Assembly (NCBI GenBank): GCA_963668315.1
Contig: OY764216.1
Span: 4,576,001-4,640,000 of the forward strand
DNA from: Spirochaetia bacterium
GTDB lineage: Bacteria > Spirochaetota > Spirochaetia > DSM-2461
Length of the DNA stretch: 64,000 bases
Direction: 5' to 3'
Positions 53,117 to 64,000 of the stretch are shown piece by piece; the stretch's first letter is position 1, and each line of letters starts with the position of its first letter. Both the position numbers and the translations under genes were made by a program. The notes under the pieces were generated by a model, which did not search any database, had not been told where the DNA came from, and was given only the letters and a program-made list of their open reading frames with translations.

Positions 53117-53480
53117 ATGACTATAGATTTGGTTTTATGAAAACAATCTATATTAAGAGGCACCTATTCCACTACCCTATTTTTTCAAAGAAAACGGCGG
53201 GTGAAATATTATATTTAGCAGCAAGTTTCTGAATATGTTGTTTATTAAGTTCTCTCTTCCCCGAAATAATCTCACTGATAACCGATTGGGGAGCAATATC
53301 ACTCAAATCTGATTGTTTATGCTGATGCTCTTCCATTAATCCTTGTAACATATCAATAGGAGATACTTTTGGCGTAGGAATATTTCCTTCATATTCTTTA
53401 AGCTGACTTTTTATGTAATGATATAACCCTTTCAAATAGGTTTTCTTTTCTTCAATAATTAACTCTTTCAGCTGGAGAAG
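53076..53480. repeat. 405-bp direct repeat, copy 2
   Basis: Matches 45866-46270. Confidence 0.92.
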
Positions 53481-53591
53481 AATATCTTCGGCCCTAATAG
53501 CATCGGAATCAGTTTTTATTTGGATAGAGGTCAATTCTTCCATAACTGAAATATTTGCTTTATCTAAAAAATTATCCAGTGAAGTAATCAT
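53172..53591 (-). CDS. higA: HigA-like HTH antitoxin/regulator; no toxin partner seen
   Basis: LMEEH..KQSDL....QSVISEI..GKR.LN..HI.KL. Confidence 0.85.
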   Translation of the reverse strand: MITSLDNFLDKANISVMEELTSIQIKTDSDAIRAEDILLQLKELIIEEKKTYLKGLYHYIKSQLKEYEGNIPTPKVSPIDMLQGLMEEHQHKQSDLSDIAPQSVISEIISGKRELNKQHIQKLAAKYNISPAVFFEKIG

Positions 53592-54225
53592 AATTAACTC
53601 CCAACATGATATTATCAAAAAACACCAAATAGTCTCTTAAACAATATCCTATATAGATTATAGTTTAGCTCTATACGACAAGGATTTACAAGAAACGTTT
53701 TATTATATTCCGTTTTAAATCAAACTTATCTTTCTATGTATCATTCCTTTTCATTTGATAAGTTCAAATAAAATCACCAATGCTGAAACGATAATCATAC
53801 TTCTCTTATATCCTATCAAAAGTTACGTTCTATCCTTCGTAAATATTCTTCTGATCTTCTAAATCCTTTAAACAATGCCGATCAATATTCTTTCTTTTAA
53901 AACAGCTTGTCAATCATCCGTTCATTAATGTCTTTGTTTTAGAAGCTTGAAATACTTTTTTTATTTCTTTACAACATAGAGAATTACAAAACGAATCGCG
54001 CGCTATTTTATTATATTACAAAGATTTACGCAATATAGCGTTTACCCATATACAGCCTTTGTTTTACAACTATATACACATATAACAAAGATTTAACTGT
54101 TAGCGCTTTACATGCTTTATCTTGCATAGCTAACAGTTAAGGATAAAGTTAAGAAAATCAATATATAAATTACACAATAGATTTAAATAACTGAATGAGA
54201 AAAGATCAGAATTAAAAGTAATTTT

Positions 54226-54255
54226 CCCAAAAAGGTCACCGGTGACCTTTTTGGG
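54226..54255. repeat. Perfect 30-bp palindrome
   Basis: cccaaaaaggtcacc|ggtgacctttttggg. Confidence 0.95.
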
Positions 54256-54501
54256 GATTTAACAGGAATTTGACATTAAACGAGAGCCTTCCGATCTACA
54301 TACTCCTGATATTCATATCTCAAAAAGAAACATATTATTGTCTATATTTTTTCTAAAGAAAAAGCCTATAATCTCCATTAAGAACTCTTGCCAGGGATAT
54401 TGTCTTTGAAGATTCTTGCTTCATTCCATCTAATGATCGTATTTTTCCTCCCTGATGGTAGGCTGACGATCCATTTCTATCTACCCTGATGTGATAAGTA
54501 C

Positions 54502-54921
54502 TCACAGATCTGATACATCTCCAAATAAATCCAGCATAAATCTTCCATTATTTTTAGAAATTGATTTAACAAAAGATTTCCTAAAATTTTCATAACGTGA
54601 AGTAGCACTTTTTCTAGCACCTTCCCTCTTTTCATTATTATCAGGCAATGCAGGATTATAGATAAAAAAGCCGTAAAGAAAAGAATCAAAATACTTCATG
54701 AACAAATCTAGTTCTTTATACAATCTATTTATATTCTCAGAGCTTTCTGAAATAGATTTTGATAATACATCAATCATGCTTGATTCCTTTTCCAATTTCT
54801 CATATGCAGCGTCTCTAATAAAATCAGAGAGAGTATAGTTCTTACTACAGAAATTATCCATTATTTTCTTTTTAATATTTATTGGTATACGAATATTAAT
54901 ACTAGTTTTAACACTTGACAT
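54502..54921 (-). CDS. Ribbon-helix-helix-like DNA-binding protein with coiled-coil tail
   Basis: SINIRIP strand, TLSDFIRDA helix; aaggag RBS; inverted repeat at 54966-55020 upstream. Confidence 0.6.
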   Translation of the reverse strand: MSSVKTSINIRIPINIKKKIMDNFCSKNYTLSDFIRDAAYEKLEKESSMIDVLSKSISESSENINRLYKELDLFMKYFDSFLYGFFIYNPALPDNNEKREGARKSATSRYENFRKSFVKSISKNNGRFMLDLFGDVSDL

Positions 54922-55114
54922 AGTTTTATACTCCTTATTCTATTCTATATAAACAATTAAAAGTCGTAAAAACCTCATAAAGTATCATTATATAATATTC
55001 TATCCCGTATGAGGTTTTACAATATAGAGAGTTTATCTTACGAATCTATACTTACTCTAAAGGGAATTACGATTATACTCCCTTTATCTAGCAAAGATCC
55101 TAAAAAAGCTATAA

Positions 55115-56026
55115 CTATTCAGATTTCCATGGTACTCTTTCATTCAATTCTTTCAAATTGGATTCATTAAATGGAAACTCCCCCCTCGACCTCTTTGCCA
55201 GATTCTCTTTATCACTTGAATGAAACGAAGATGAAAACTTCTGGCTACGATTAGGAAGATTAGGATCGGTATGAGGCCTTTCCTTCCATTTCTCAGAACG
55301 TAACCAACTAATGGCATTTGGAATAAATTTCCGATTATCCTTTTGCCATTCTTCAGTAGTCATCCAATCAGAAACAAGAGCAATATGATCTTCAAGAACT
55401 GGCAGATTATGAATATTCAAAAACAAAGCTAAGGTCTCATTCTTGTCACACTTTCTTGGATAGTGTTCCCACCATTTCTCAAAATCCAGTTTTTTCTGTT
55501 TCAGGTCTTCATTCTCTTCTAGTTTAGGTTCTTCTTGTCTTTTCTCTTCTAGTCTAGCTGTGACAGTCTGTGACTCGTCATTGACTGTCACAGACATGTC
55601 ATAGACAGCCTCATACGCATCAAACCAATTAGGGGTAGCCAGCCTACCAATCTTTTTCTGCTCTGCCACTTGTGCCTTATAGACTTTAATCAGCTTTTGG
55701 AGTTTCTTTGAACGCGTCGCTGATGTAAGAAGGAATTTATAGATCTTATGACAGGAAATCTCTCCTGATTGTTCAAGGGTTAATAGATCTTGATTACACA
55801 TGAAATGAATCATCTGTTCAACTCGCGAAGTATTACCATTGTAAAATTGGGCAATATCTTCACATGTTTCCTCCAACGTCGGTAGAGGGCTATAATCTTC
55901 TATAGCCTCTGTAATCGACTCAATAATCAAACAGTATAATCCATAGCCTTCAATACCATATCTTTCGAATACTCTTCTGATTTTTGGATCATGCCTCATT
56001 GTACCCAGGTGCTGAAAATATCTCAT
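55115..56026 (-). CDS. Phage-type replication initiator (replisome organizer-like)
   Basis: YFQH....DPKI.....YG.EGYGLY N-terminus; repeat-rich linker; FEKWWEHYPRK and FIP...WL...W C-terminus. Confidence 0.8.
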   Translation of the reverse strand: MRYFQHLGTMRHDPKIRRVFERYGIEGYGLYCLIIESITEAIEDYSPLPTLEETCEDIAQFYNGNTSRVEQMIHFMCNQDLLTLEQSGEISCHKIYKFLLTSATRSKKLQKLIKVYKAQVAEQKKIGRLATPNWFDAYEAVYDMSVTVNDESQTVTARLEEKRQEEPKLEENEDLKQKKLDFEKWWEHYPRKCDKNETLALFLNIHNLPVLEDHIALVSDWMTTEEWQKDNRKFIPNAISWLRSEKWKERPHTDPNLPNRSQKFSSSFHSSDKENLAKRSRGEFPFNESNLKELNERVPWKSE

Positions 56027-56217
56027 CTGGCCCCCCTAATCCTACTATCCTGAAAATCCGCTGTGATCTTTTGGGATTTAGTTCCAGACCACTCAATCCT
56101 AACCAGTCTAGAATCATGCAGGTGGACTTTAAGTGAAATACAGCCATACGCTGGAATAGTCTGAAATACCTCCAAAAAATCTGGAGCAATTTCTTCTAGA
56201 AGTTCTTTAGCTTTCAT
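56023..56217 (-). CDS. Small hypothetical protein
   Basis: Overlaps both neighbours; gggagg RBS. Confidence 0.6.
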   Translation of the reverse strand: MKAKELLEEIAPDFLEVFQTIPAYGCISLKVHLHDSRLVRIEWSGTKSQKITADFQDSRIRGAR

Positions 56218-56404
56218 CTATAACCTCCCAACCATCATATGACCCATTAAGAAGATTATCTATAAATGACTCGGGAACACGTATCTGCTTCCCAATTCTT
56301 ACGTGTGGAATCGCATCATTTGCGATATGACGTATGAATGTTGAATAACTGATACCTAATCTATCAGTAACTTCCGTAGGTGTTAAAAATTTATCATTAC
56401 CCAT
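56207..56404 (-). CDS. Excisionase-like HTH protein
   Basis: FLTP.EV..RLGIS.ST......IP.VRIG..IRVP. Confidence 0.85.
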   Translation of the reverse strand: MGNDKFLTPTEVTDRLGISYSTFIRHIANDAIPHVRIGKQIRVPESFIDNLLNGSYDGWEVIDES

Positions 56405-56524
56405 CTTTCTACTCCAATAATTATTATTGATTGCAATCATTGGGTAAATGATAGAATTCGTATCAATTTACGAATACGTGTAAAAGTAGTGGAAAATGGG
56501 TAAAAAACAGGGAGGAAGAAGCTA

Positions 56525-57053
56525 CGAGCCACCCCGTGTTTTCCTGAGACACAATTATTTGAGAGAATAGTTTCATGAAAAAGCGGATCATCTATATTCT
56601 TCCATATAAAAGTTGGCTGATGGGTTTTACAATCTATGAATACAGATTCAACCTTGGATGCCTTGGAACAAGCTATTTTTGCTCGATCCCAAGAGAAAAA
56701 TCTTATCCATCAAAGTTACAGAGGTATTCTGTATTTATTAATTAGGTACTCAGAACGCCAATCTGAATCAGGATTTTCTCCATCAGTTAGTAGCGTTAGT
56801 CATATAATAATGCCACGGACGAGACAATCAATGGTCGTTTTTAAGCGGAGATGATTTGGAAAAGAAGTTCTTGGAAAACAATGGAAGACTCAGAATTAGC
56901 CATTCTGGAATAGGAGGACTGGTTCAAGAATCACAGACTTTTGGTGCCAATCGTAGATAATCTTCCCTAAGAATACGAAATGCTGTAAAATAAAAGAGTT
57001 AAAGGTTCGTCTGAATTAGTAGGACTCAAATAAAAAAATCTCTGGGCGGTTCA
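56525..57053 (+). mobile_element. Internally deleted IS3-family (IS51-like) remnant with 3-bp target duplication
   Basis: Ends cgagccacccc... and ...gggcggttca, flanked by cta/cta; LDALEQAI..R...LIH integrase-core remnant. Confidence 0.78.
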
Positions 57054-58037
57054 CTATTTCAAGGGGAAACATTTGTGCCAATTATCTTCAAGAGACCGTT
57101 CAGAAAGAACCTCCCCTGTCTTTTTAATTAAATTGGGAAAATGTACTTTGGGGTTTAAATCGGGAGAATCTTTATAATGCATCTGAACGAATTTAATTAT
57201 TGAACATGTTAATTGATATCGACCATCGCCGATCCTCTTAATATATTGCTCTTTTTCTAGATTTTTCAAAACTGATAATACTTGTTCGTATGGATCATGA
57301 ATTAAATCATCCTTTAATAAAATCTCATTCAGAAGGATTTCATAGTCTACCAAATGTAACAGATGCAAATTGAATAGAAACTCCTGATTCTCATTATACT
57401 TGAAAGCCGTTCTCTCTTCTTTAAGTACAATAAGAATTCTAGGGATAATATCCGCAAAACTAAGAAGTTCACAAGCATTTACAAAATCAAGAACAGAAGT
57501 TTCCTCTGACATTCGAATAACCTGTTCTATAACACGAGGATTAATATCCTCTGATTCATTTCGATATAGAATAGAAGCAAGTAAGATTAAAAATCTCTTT
57601 GCATCATTAACATTTCTTATAATGATTTTCTTTTTTTGTTCATGGCTCAATACATCATATCTATTTTTTAAATAAAGCTCATATTCTATCTGTTCATCCG
57701 TAAAGAACTTTACATTTTCCTCAATATACTCAAACTGTTGATCCAACTCGCGCTTAAGAAGCTCTTGGGATGGATCAAGTTGATCTAGTTCCTCTGATAT
57801 GTTCTTCTGCTCTATTTGAGTATGTTGTAAAAGCTGATTTTCAAAAAATGTTTCTTGATAAAAAGAGAATAATGCATCATCCTCAAGATTTTGAGGAATG
57901 GGTAAAAATAAATCCGCATATTTCGCCCGGAAGAAAAGATCATTGGTTTGACCGCTTCTTATAGCATATTCAACATTTTTATAAATCTCAGTTCTTAGTG
58001 ATCCATCATCCGGATAATATTTATGTATTCTAATCAT
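57054..58037 (-). CDS. Hypothetical protein
   Basis: 327-aa ORF in AT-rich DNA, overlapping the XRE gene end. Confidence 0.75.
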   Translation of the reverse strand: MIRIHKYYPDDGSLRTEIYKNVEYAIRSGQTNDLFFRAKYADLFLPIPQNLEDDALFSFYQETFFENQLLQHTQIEQKNISEELDQLDPSQELLKRELDQQFEYIEENVKFFTDEQIEYELYLKNRYDVLSHEQKKKIIIRNVNDAKRFLILLASILYRNESEDINPRVIEQVIRMSEETSVLDFVNACELLSFADIIPRILIVLKEERTAFKYNENQEFLFNLHLLHLVDYEILLNEILLKDDLIHDPYEQVLSVLKNLEKEQYIKRIGDGRYQLTCSIIKFVQMHYKDSPDLNPKVHFPNLIKKTGEVLSERSLEDNWHKCFPLK

Positions 58038-58251
58038 TCAATGCTTCTTCTATTGATCTAACTATCTCCCACGCAGGACATCCAATACCACGTGCTATTC
58101 TTATAATTGTTTTCAATGAAGGCATCTTCTTACCGGTTTCTATTTCGGATAAAAAAGCTTTACTCATATCTATACGATTTATGAGTTCATCTTGGGATAA
58201 TCCGGATTTTTTTCTATAGTTACTTATTACTGAACCTATAACTTCCTTCAT
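58030..58251 (-). CDS. XRE-family HTH regulator
   Basis: RKKSGLSQ.EL......FLSEIE.GK..PSL. Confidence 0.9.
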   Translation of the reverse strand: MKEVIGSVISNYRKKSGLSQDELINRIDMSKAFLSEIETGKKMPSLKTIIRIARGIGCPAWEIVRSIEEALND

Positions 58252-60496: not shown

Positions 60497-61099
60497 AATT
60501 ATACTCCTCTCATTGCAATCTAACCCCTCTTTACTGAATCGCAATAATTGTAAAATTATGATAAAAAAGAATAAAAACTTATGTTGGCATCTAGGAGGAG
60601 AACCTGTTTAAGCTTTACTTCACTAAGTATAAAATGTTTAATAACATTAATCAATTATTTGAGGGTAAGAAAGAAAATTGTTCAAACTAGACTTCCCCGA
60701 TTTCTATACAACGTAAGATTTCTATCCTGCAGAACCCAAATAAAAAAAGTCCCCCTGGTAGCATCCATATCGTCAAAACATCCACCGCTTCTGCGGGATA
60801 GAACTCGTTGTACTCAACCGACTGTATGAAAAAGCTTTCTCCATGGGTCTTGTATTGAATTTCCAGCTTACATGAAAAGTATAATACTGTTCCCTTAATT
60901 AAGAAATAGTGATTTTCCCACTTACCGTAAGAAATAATCCCTATTCCCCTTTGGGAAGAATTATAAAAAGGGCTTTCCCGGGGAAAGTGAGGCATAAAAG
61001 AACAAAGCTCCCCCACGAATCCTATGAACAGGACACGGGTGAGAATAATCGTTCGTATTTTTCCATCAACAATTATCACAGGCCGAGGGCCTGGTCACT

Positions 61100-62259
61100 T
61101 CAGGATACCCTGCAAGGATTTGGCTCAGGACCATGAATACTCCGCCTATTTCCATACAATCCCATGAAGATCATCTCTTTTCCGCATTTGCAACAGACTT
61201 TTTTCTCAAAGTCCCAAGTCTCGACATCCTTATGCGACTCATACTCATTCGCTGGATTTTCTCCTGGTTCATGGGAAAAATCGGGGAGTTCCGTTATGAA
61301 TTGCCGCACTTGCCTTAGGGATTCCCGCCTGTTATGATTACTCATATAACCGAAATATCGTATCTTTCTCATCCCCTTGGGCAAAAGATGAAGAAGAAAA
61401 CGATCAATGAATTCCTCCAAAGGGAGAACCATCCTTTTTCTCTTGTGGCCGGAGGCTCTGTCAATCCATGTGAAATTGACTCTGTCTCCATCTGTGGCAA
61501 CAATCCGCTGCTCGCTGATTCCCACACGGTGTGTATATCGGCCCAGGTACTTAACAACCTGAGCAGGATTTCCAAAAGGCTTTTTGGCATAAACCACAAA
61601 GTTTTTCCGCGCGGCACTCTGTAGATTTTTCTCATAGAGAACCCTGTCGCCAAAGAGAGCCCCCTTATCACAGTATTTTCTGAGTGAACTCAGCAGCTTC
61701 CCCCGAAAAACGACAGACAATTTCTTCACCGGCACCAGATATTTGGGATTCCCCTCAATCCAGTGAGATTTATCAGGAGAGAGGCCTCCCCGGGTAGAAT
61801 ACAGTGCACATGAGGATGATAAAGCAGTTTCTGCGTCCATGTATGAAGAACTGATAATCCCCCTACACCGGCCCCGAGATTCTCCGGATTCTGACATACC
61901 TCAAGAAGTGTCTTATGGGCACTATGAAAAAGAGCTTTGTAGAATAGTTGATGATTCGCACCAGCCAAGTGAAGCAGTTCATGGGGAACCGTAAAGACCA
62001 CATGAAAATAGGGAACCGGCAATAATTCTTCCAGCCGCTTGTCCACCCACCGGACACGGGACGCTCCCTGGCACAAGGGGCAGTGCCTGTCCCGGCAGGA
62101 ATTGTAATGAGTTTCTTTATGCCCGCATTCGCAAACCAAGGTATTACCACCCATCCGATGGGTATGGCAATCCGAAATATGTCCCAGAACCACCCGTTCT
62201 CTCCTGTTCAAACCGGGAAGAGTTTTCCCTATCTCTGCTATTTCTCCCAATTTACTCAT
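61100..62259 (-). pseudogene. IS91-family Y2/HUH rolling-circle transposase, 1-bp frameshift
   Basis: Zn-binding C.C..YNSC..RHCP.C, YFHVVFTVP, LHTW, HPHVH, YLGRY, IRYFG; frame breaks in the C4 run at 61788-61791. Confidence 0.93.
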
Positions 62260-63115
62260 GAACCGCTTCCCCTCCCTTCAAAGAATCAAGAGGATTGCGG
62301 ACGGTTCTTATATGATGGGCGGCAATATGCAAATATTTTTCCGTCGTCTGGATATCGGAATGGCCTAGAAGAGCCTGTATCGTTCGCAAATCAGTTCCGG
62401 CCTCAAGAAGGTGCGTGGCAAAGGAGTGACGAAAAGTATGGGGAGTCACATGTCTCTCCAATCCTGCTCTCACGGTAAGATTTTGGATGAATCTCTGAAT
62501 GGTAGAGGTATGCATCTTCACATGCCCCCCTCTGCCGGGAAACAGCCATTCATCGGGTTTGACACGGCAGGACCGATAATAAGCCCGTAAAATCTCCAGC
62601 AAATCGGCGCTTAACTGGACTTTTCTATCCTTACCGCCTTTCCCCTGGCGGACATGAAGCAGCATATTCTTACTGTCGATATCGGTGATTTTTAGATTAA
62701 CAAGTTCGCCTATTCTCAAACCGGTACTGTAAAGAGTGGCGACAATAGCATAGTGGCGGGGATTTTTCCGGACTTCAGAAAGCAACAGGGATACTTCCTT
62801 TTTGTTCATTACCTCGGGTAGTTTTTTTCTCATCTTCTGAAAAGGAATATGATTCACCGGCCAATCGACGCCTCTTACTTTCTGAAAATAAAACCGGAGC
62901 GCACAGACCATTTGGTTAAAATGGGACCAGGAAACCTTTTCCTGGTGCACCAGATAATATTGCCATTCATGAATATCTTCGAGTGTTACCAAATCAATGG
63001 GCTTCTCTAGATGGGTCAGATACTTTTTCAGTACGGCGACATAGGTTGATATCGTTTTTTCTGCATAATTGCGGATCACCATGGCTTTGCGCATGGCTTC
63101 TAATTCTTGTGTCAT
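62252..63115 (-). CDS. Tyrosine recombinase (site-specific integrase)
   Basis: N-terminal SAM-like domain, TGLR..E, GKGGKDR, HTFRHSFATHLLE, LGH, TEKY. Confidence 0.95.
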   Translation of the reverse strand: MTQELEAMRKAMVIRNYAEKTISTYVAVLKKYLTHLEKPIDLVTLEDIHEWQYYLVHQEKVSWSHFNQMVCALRFYFQKVRGVDWPVNHIPFQKMRKKLPEVMNKKEVSLLLSEVRKNPRHYAIVATLYSTGLRIGELVNLKITDIDSKNMLLHVRQGKGGKDRKVQLSADLLEILRAYYRSCRVKPDEWLFPGRGGHVKMHTSTIQRFIQNLTVRAGLERHVTPHTFRHSFATHLLEAGTDLRTIQALLGHSDIQTTEKYLHIAAHHIRTVRNPLDSLKGGEAVHE

Positions 63116-63228
63116 ATAACACCTCCGCCTCTATTGTGAAAAGAGTGACGGATTTATATAACCGGGGAATCTTGATAGGTGGAGAAAAGTGTGATGGTGT
63201 TGAATCCACCGCTGGGTACAGCGGTTTA

Positions 63229-63336
63229 GTTCAACGCCCGCATAACCTGTTTTCCGTACATGGCAGAAATCCTGCCTGCGAAGCAGAAAAGCAGGATTTG
63301 TGCCATAGGAAAATCAGGTTCATGCGATTGTTATAC
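63229..63336 (-). other. Integron attC recombination site
   Basis: Minus strand: R'' GTATAAC, 5 nt, L'' CATGAACC, long imperfect stem, L' GGTTATG, 5 nt, R' GTTGAAC; extrahelical base in L''. Confidence 0.85.
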
Positions 63337-63523
63337 GGTCCGTTCTTTTTCCCACATCTTTCTCGCTCCCGCCGGAACACAGGAAATGGGTGAAGGTGAT
63401 TCTTATTGATCTATTTTTCATTCTGCTCCATTACCATACTTGAAAGCAAGTCCGAAAACTGATCTGGATGCTTTTCCTTGATTCATATTAAATTGGAATT
63501 GGCAGTAGTCTTCATCTCTGCTG

Positions 63524-64000
63524 CTACTGGTCAAAAAGTAAGCAAGTTGGCGTATAGTTACAGGCACCGCTCCACTCATAACACTGGACAGGTGCTGTCG
63601 CATTTAGCCTATGTCCTAAGAAGAGGGCCAGATGGGAGGGCCCCGCGAAAAATAAGTGTATCTTATCTATAGAAGTCTTGGAAAGCTCAGTGGTAATTGC
63701 CAGCTTCAACTGATTCACCACAACATTTGTATGTTCTGGTGATAAAATAGGAGATGAGCTATTTAGGCTAAGAATTGAAGCTTCTCCAAGGTTTAGCGAA
63801 GGTAGAGCGGGCTTTACATTTTCCTTTATATCACGTGCGATCCCTATAACAATAACCAGATCGGAGCTTATACCATTGTCTTTTATGATAGTGAACTTGT
63901 ATGGTGGTGTTTTTTCGTTTGGAAATGAATCTGTAGACCAGATTTCATTTCGATATATGAGATCAATCGCAAATCCAGAAACTGCAGAGAATATAGACCC
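63524..64000 (-). CDS. SAVED-domain protein, C-terminal part (CBASS Cap4-like effector); 5' end outside the window
   Basis: Frame open from 64000; IHLFFAGPSHLALFLGHRLNATAPVQCYEW...Y.P. Confidence 0.88.
   Translation of the reverse strand, partial: GSIFSAVSGFAIDLIYRNEIWSTDSFPNEKTPPYKFTIIKDNGISSDLVIVIGIARDIKENVKPALPSLNLGEASILSLNSSSPILSPEHTNVVVNQLKLAITTELSKTSIDKIHLFFAGPSHLALFLGHRLNATAPVQCYEWSGACNYTPTCLLFDQ

Follow-up and report, generated by a model that had tools for sequence, protein, structure and literature searches.

A complete type II CBASS operon probably captured as a single 5-kb integron cassette in a spirochaete

Judged from its sequence, a complete type II CBASS operon in a Spirochaetia bacterium has probably been captured as one integron cassette of 5,020 bp, inserted in trans by the IntI of the host. 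The 5,020 bases that separate two attC sites, the cores of which match, are taken up by the operon; this suggests packaging by the distant host IntI as one cassette. The window, a stretch of 64,000 nucleotides, comprises bases 4,576,001-4,640,000 of a single 5.62-Mb contig, so that genome coordinate = window + 4,576,000; coordinates above 64000 continue the window numbering past its edge (Table 1). A first-pass annotation of the last bases of this window had proposed that an effector, or a whole CBASS operon, is packaged as an integron-type cassette or mobilised by the adjacent element. It is the whole operon that is enclosed, with CD-NTase, Cap2 and Cap3 genes upstream of the effector and a second attC bounding them.

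Table 1. Positions of the cassettes, their genes and the surrounding features (window numbering unless marked as genome).
Feature	Position	Strand	Remarks
CBASS cassette, 5,020 bp	63235-68254	-	in-window part 63235-64000
Trailer, 187 bp, Cap4 stop codon to attC	63337-63523	-
attC closing the CBASS cassette	63229-63336	top strand on minus (as SAVED ORF); bottom strand = +	crossover base 63235
Cap4, PD-(D/E)xK nuclease + SAVED, 480 aa	63524-64966	-	in-window part = last 158 aa
Cap3 JAB, 164 aa	64947-65441	-
Cap2 E2-E1, 595 aa	65410-67197	-
CD-NTase, 334 aa	67197-68201	-
Upstream attC	68249-68355	-	crossover 68255; 80.6 bits
First cassette, 2,600 bp	68255-70854	-
ORF, 202 aa, no match in three libraries	68558-69166	-	first cassette
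OLD-family ATPase-TOPRIM	69168-70823	-	first cassette
Integrase partner ORF, 202 aa	71131-71739		minus strand; between island integrase and cassette array
Island integrase	71736-72893		minus strand; abuts tRNA(CAT)
tRNA(CAT)	73050-73123 (window-equivalent)		minus strand; Met by ARAGORN; adjoins island integrase
IS91-like element	60712-63234	-	sits exactly at attC crossover
Tyrosine recombinase of element, 287 aa	62252-63115	-	no IntI insertion
IS91-family transposase	61100-62259	-	frameshifted near 61790
tRNA-Met 3' fragments	11512 (42 bp); 45890, 53099 (17 and 18 bp)
Full intI, over cut-off	genome 3,134,160-3,135,089		heads an array; 1.5 Mb away, nearest full one
Four islands with integrase and partner ORF	genome 3,446,476; 4,647,134; 4,840,724; 4,860,703

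The open-ended reading frame at the window edge (63524-64000, minus strand, 158 aa) bears the SAVED domain claimed for it (Pfam SAVED, E 4e-24) and extends at full length to a 480-aa Cap4, the last gene of the operon. Cap4 passes the NCBIfam model NF051438 (206 bits, cut-off 160) and matches PDB 6VM5 over residues 10-475 (E 1e-54), with a score for Pfam Cap4_nuclease slightly below the cut-off (25.6 vs 26.2). Residues D57, E75 and K77 align with the D/E/K of PDB 6VM5/6VM6, which we take to be catalytic. On the minus strand the genes run in the order CD-NTase, Cap2, Cap3, Cap4, with overlaps of 1, 32 and 20 bp. The CD-NTase, the sole SMODS match in the genome, is over the SMODS cut-off and matches the PADLOC cyclase at E 3e-137; its GS and DxD...D motifs are intact, and of 21 sequences at least 90% retain G52-S53, D73, D75 and D121. 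Cap2 gives an E1-E2 match at E 1e-180, and its C91 is found in 15/15 and its C412 in 13/15 aligned sequences, the latter residue being the presumed equivalent of B. cereus C403. The zinc motif of Cap3 (E27, H91, H93 and D104) is likewise conserved and intact. None of the four frames is interrupted, and relatives keep the catalytic residues. With the cyclase, Cap2, Cap3 and the sensor-effector protein all present, the locus is by homology a complete and intact type II CBASS operon, the function of which is predicted from that of its relatives. Its span of 4,678 bp falls within the 4,558-4,725 bp found in nine non-cassette relatives with all four genes at full length, indicating that the cassette copy is not streamlined. 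A promoter scan ran at chance level (31 promoter-like hits vs 32.3 in shuffles) and established no Pc-like promoter.

The attC sites were scored with a covariance model trained on 20 further attC sites from this genome, neither focal site being among them. Both sides vary in 24 of the 35 pairs of the training alignment, a level reached in 0/500 shuffles, and the covariation is well above both controls. The site that closes the CBASS cassette scores 76.9 bits on the bottom strand (E ~1e-19) vs 30.4 on the top strand, and is the sole site in the window with E <= 1; the upstream site, at E ~1e-20, shows the same bottom-strand bias. The bottom strand of the closing site folds at z -7.4, and 0/200 shuffles folded as well. 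It has the inverse core, core, paired L boxes and bottom-strand hairpin expected of a terminal attC. The attC is thus real and on the same strand as the SAVED gene, as the first-pass annotation held, and the gap that it gave as about 190 bp measures 187 bp. That annotation had also let the proposal hang on a SAVED HMM match and on a CD-NTase or other attC upstream; the match, the CD-NTase and the other attC are all present. The genome holds 36 attC matches in several clusters; beyond the IS91-like element the model gave no third attC. A loose structural scan, which gave many false hits in GC-rich loci, served as a side check only.

The fit between the operon and its two boundaries is tight. 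The leader from the upstream attC crossover to the CD-NTase start measures 53 bp, and the trailer is long at 187 bp, those of other cassettes reaching 107-234 bp. The genes are co-oriented with the attC, the covariance model finds no internal attC at E <= 1, and the gene overlaps leave no room for one. An attC in an integron array is expected to have an inverse core complementary to the core with which its own cassette begins, the two having been paired in the circular form. Across the genome, the inverse core equals the core of the upstream neighbour in 22/25 neighbour pairs (the focal pair included) and its own downstream core in only 2/21 scorable pairs, both figures being direct counts rather than shuffle-tested values across pairs. 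The focal match is 9 nt in length, the longest in 12,664 upstream bases, in which shorter matches of 7 and 8 nt occur too, and its chance of arising within 150 nt is ~0.0006. In the circle-junction form the terminal stem is closed and the fold is better (-34.0 vs -30.9 kcal/mol). In addition, the first 16 nt of the CBASS cassette are the start of another cassette at genome 4,867,150, and this 16-mer occurs just twice in the genome. Of 26 attC-to-attC intervals listed, that of the CBASS cassette has the greatest length, and its GC content of 39% is among the highest (other intervals, 26-41%), the higher-GC intervals among the rest being short or interrupted by IS copies. The contigs of six of the seven runs listed (X1, X2, X4, X5, X6 and X7, which stem from no more than two studies, one of them perhaps the source; contigs drop rare forms) hold no excised circle or exact empty site. 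An excision-like joint, 3239-to-8249 in runs X4/X5, was rejected, as its 24-letter side, 7 other letters and gap point to a different attC.

The CBASS cassette is the second of a short array. The upstream attC matches a single 9-nt core at 70855, and this match defines a first cassette that encodes, beside an ORF lacking library matches, an OLD-family ATPase-TOPRIM protein with no obvious Gabija partner. The start point at 70855 is not an attC and has no BLAST resemblance to the attI region of the complete integron; we read it as a secondary insertion site of the kind described in the accessible part of 10.1101/2022.09.11.507474. A search by BLAST and by eye found no conserved attI-like motif across the island arrays of the genome. 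The locus has no intI with the specific insertion beside an attI, as a complete integron would, and both nearby recombinases fall under the TIGR02249 cut-off and lack the IntI insertion. In substance the array is a CALIN (at least two same-strand attC sites, no adjacent intI), with a gap of 4,912 bp between its sites that exceeds the 4-kb default of IntegronFinder. The search beyond position 64000 that the first-pass annotation had outlined thus yielded the effector N-terminus, the CD-NTase, Cap2 and Cap3 and a further attC, but no local intI, the full one being 1.5 Mb away. In the complete integron headed by that intI, a transposase-like ORF (genome 3,135,519-3,136,822) directly follows the putative attI core, at the very start of the first cassette, and several other cassettes of the genome are broken by IS copies. 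Another intI-less array, near an island integrase and an apparent CRISPR-Cas locus, holds a PDC-S01-like gene and a SIR2-HerA cassette with two genes in 3,327 bp (genome 4,868,463-4,871,790), the core match of the cassette being 7 nt.

The array is preceded by a terminator-like hairpin, the 202-aa partner ORF and the island integrase abutting tRNA(CAT), which ARAGORN calls Met and which is likely Ile2; an Rfam search gave the tRNA as its sole match. A 46-47-bp repeat of the 3' end of this tRNA lies 125 kb off, beside another integrase, which leaves the far boundary of the island unsettled. The tRNA-targeted island of the first-pass annotation is therefore real in having a tRNA beside its integrase and a repeat of the tRNA 3' end, but its far limit is not fixed and ARAGORN finds no tRNA within the 64-kb window, where only 3' fragments (42, 17 and 18 bp) of a different tRNA-Met (genome 4,839,184) occur. 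These fragments may be old attachment sites. The pairing of an integrase with an unannotated partner ORF of ~200 aa (one copy split) is common to four islands of this genome, and the partner ORF is present in 3/37 other genomes of the family. An island remnant in the same genus (G013) diverges directly after the partner ORF, and no empty site was seen there. A low-GC block at window 53172-58251, with an HTH antitoxin-like gene, a Lin1244-like protein, an excisionase-like HTH_17 and an XRE regulator, is probably the replication and regulation module of the island.

Related operons were collected from 19 GTDB loci and two plasmid loci, with cyclases 43-65% identical to the focal one; the closest Cap4 homologues are 53-60% identical, and a search of 37 other genomes of the family did not find the CD-NTase. 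An attC was found at 0/21 of these operons, with a lineage-trained model of unproven sensitivity in those phyla and with some contigs ending near the operon. Among 400 other genomes sampled from the class, 23 had SMODS matches (27 matches, covered by 25 fetched regions), and attC matches were found in one of the 25 regions, in a genome of another family (G574). Here a CD-NTase (344 aa), Cap2, Cap3 and a phosphoesterase-SAVED effector make up a unit of 5,106 bp. The operon starts 58 bp after a 9-nt core match, which without an attC forms the upstream end, and ends 57 bp before an attC (79.4 bits), with more attC sites beyond. With a cyclase that shares only 23% identity with the focal one, and a Cap2 that aligns over a ThiF segment only, G574 represents an independent capture. 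The intI of G574 lies 1.5 Mb from the CBASS unit. A full intI is present in 7/23 of the SMODS genomes of the sample, and the model found attC sites in 5/5 other such intI genomes tested, so that the negatives carry weight. CBASS is thus seen packaged as a cassette in 2/8 genomes with an intI and a SMODS gene (the focal genome included), a count in which a SMODS match is not always CBASS and kin are not independent. G574 also carries a ~3.9-kb three-gene unit (G574:C1:1315502-1319387; an unknown ORF, an ORC-CDC6-like ATPase and a CARF-like protein) that begins at a 9-nt core match and is closed by an attC; before it lies a pair consisting of multi-ubiquitin and DUF6791-ThiF-DUF6527. The unit is possibly another large defence cassette.

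One-ended rolling-circle transposition is the mechanism of ISCR elements, and IS91-like and ISCR elements mobilise the DNA on their 5' side. The IS91-like element abuts the attC with the cassettes on its 5' side, and its recombinase is 34% identical to host IntI, features that would be expected if it had brought in the block by one-ended transposition. We consider this very improbable, and with it the mobilisation by an adjacent element that the first-pass annotation had entertained. Both ends of the element are defined: its 3' end recurs in two close relatives (92% and 81% protein identity), the sequences of which part from it directly after the crossover triplet. The transposase, the frame of which is intact near 61790 in both relatives, is broken in the focal copy, and the recombinase lacks the IntI insertion. 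The sequence directly beyond the element is, over 16 nt, a cassette start elsewhere in the genome, which places the element inside the array; and no such element lies beside the CBASS cassette of G574. Most likely the element dropped into the array and is a neighbour rather than a part of the cassette. Still less credible is that the attC is an isolated relic or a chance hairpin beside an ordinary island-borne CBASS. The island has no intI, and single sites are deemed likely false positives in the available text of PMC4889954; against this stand two sites at E ~1e-19 and 1e-20 with a common strand bias, and 9-nt junction matches for both cassettes, which refute this reading as far as sequence allows.

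A more serious alternative, although an unlikely one, is that a small cassette came first and that non-integron recombination later inserted the CBASS operon or replaced the cargo with it, in which case the junction signature would be a legacy of that small cassette and the 5-kb unit possibly immobile. A GC content above that of most neighbouring cassettes, the 187-bp trailer, the 16 nt shared with another cassette and the lack of attC sites at related operons elsewhere are all consistent with such a history, as is the size limit on recombination in V. cholerae, where, in the portion of 10.64898/2026.03.17.712381 available, larger cassettes are captured less and one whose attC sites lie 4 kb apart gave 0 reads. 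However, between the crossover points no IS end, gene remnant or extra gene was seen, the leader is short at 53 bp, and the unrelated operon of G574 fits as tightly (58 and 57 bp), so that the same accident would be needed twice. Capture of the operon as one cassette thus remains our preferred reading.

The family of elements with a recombinase and an IS91 transposase has features of its own. Many relatives have a common left-end motif that starts from a crossover-like triplet, the two closest keep a hairpin right end, and a tandem copy (L109) is joined at the triplet; the element may insert like a cassette by means of its own recombinase. In run X5, as a loose end, the left end of the element lies behind a different attC-like sequence. 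A general targeting of attC by the family received no support, as an attC-like fold lies upstream in just 2/69 loci, a script-derived denominator that takes in about six loci with no usable upstream sequence.

By homology to the B. cereus system, Cap2 would join the cyclase's C-terminal end to a host protein and Cap3 would release the cyclase. Upon infection the cyclase would make cyclic tri-AMP, the binding of which to the SAVED domain would switch on DNA cutting by Cap4 and abort the infection. From integron biology, IntI may recombine the two folded bottom strands to excise the operon as a 5-kb circle, which could reinsert at attI or at secondary sites; the target in this case would have been an intI-less array in a tRNA island, with IntI supplied from elsewhere in the genome. 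Given the size dependence of capture in V. cholerae (10.64898/2026.03.17.712381, in the part available), the present mobility of the cassette may be low.

The CBASS chemistry of the locus is ordinary. The common view holds that the cassettes of integrons are small and that the defence systems they carry are pared down to one or two genes. That two families each have a full-size type II CBASS operon, unrelated to the other, in a 5-kb cassette suggests that a size class has been missed. The integrons of this lineage might build and shuffle operon-sized cassettes of 4-5 kb with full three- or four-gene defence systems, a generalisation that we advance tentatively; if it is true, the reported two-component ceiling would in part be an artefact, produced by the 4-kb clustering default and by Vibrio-dominated sampling, and the close fit of cassette ends to whole operons would limit the ways in which cassettes can be made. 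The finding opens a cheap genome-wide test, in which a larger clustering distance is intersected with defence calls, and provides natural material for asking how large a unit IntI can recombine and how new cassettes are formed.

The element beside the attC resembles IS91-family elements with an extra tyrosine recombinase, which we take to be the ISShvi3 type, in having a recombinase and an IS91 transposase next to an attC; unlike in that type, it is a neighbour and not a carrier, and its transposase is frameshifted. One recombinase-bearing IS91-family element adjacent to an attC is described in the accessible text of PMC9229058. As far as the available parts of PMC4889954 and 10.1101/2022.09.11.507474 go, the array is like CALIN/SALIN arrays and attG insertions, with no local intI, an intI elsewhere in the replicon and a first cassette that starts at a non-attC core (the last after 10.1101/2022.09.11.507474), but its 5.0-kb cassette differs from the ~2 kb given there for the biggest cassettes on record. 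Integron-borne defence cassettes, as far as the preprints of Darracq and Kieffer were accessible, likewise have an anti-phage system as cargo, including brc135, a two-ORF type I CBASS-like cassette (Kieffer preprint, 10.1101/2024.07.02.601719); those cassettes are described as streamlined, whereas the focal one holds a full-size operon of four genes. In the Darracq survey, which ran IntegronFinder with default options and local-max, no type of integron defence system had more than two components (10.1101/2024.07.02.601686). IntegronFinder would likely not join the focal sites, as their separation is greater than its clustering default. A literature search at the level of abstracts and the available part of the review PMC13434031 gave no type II CBASS cassette, and a precedent in supplementary tables, outside its scope, is possible.

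The closest known system is the type II CBASS of B. cereus (BcCdnD, Cap2, Cap3, Cap4/Nuc-SAVED), with which the focal operon shares its four-gene content and nuclease-SAVED effector. Along its entire length the focal cyclase matches BcCdnD (PDB 9SA4; E 8e-133), and the two have the SGSY and PDVDI motifs in common. According to the accessible text of PMC13424991, BcCdnD makes 3'3'3' cyclic tri-AMP, which activates Cap4, and according to that of PMC11153139, Cap2 C91 and C403 and the terminal Ala of the cyclase are needed for immunity; C91 and the C-terminal Ala tail are shared, and the focal Cap2 has C412. In contrast to the B. cereus system, the focal operon is bounded by attC sites as one cassette. 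The locus thus joins a known defence system to a known container in an unreported size class, of which there are two independent cases.
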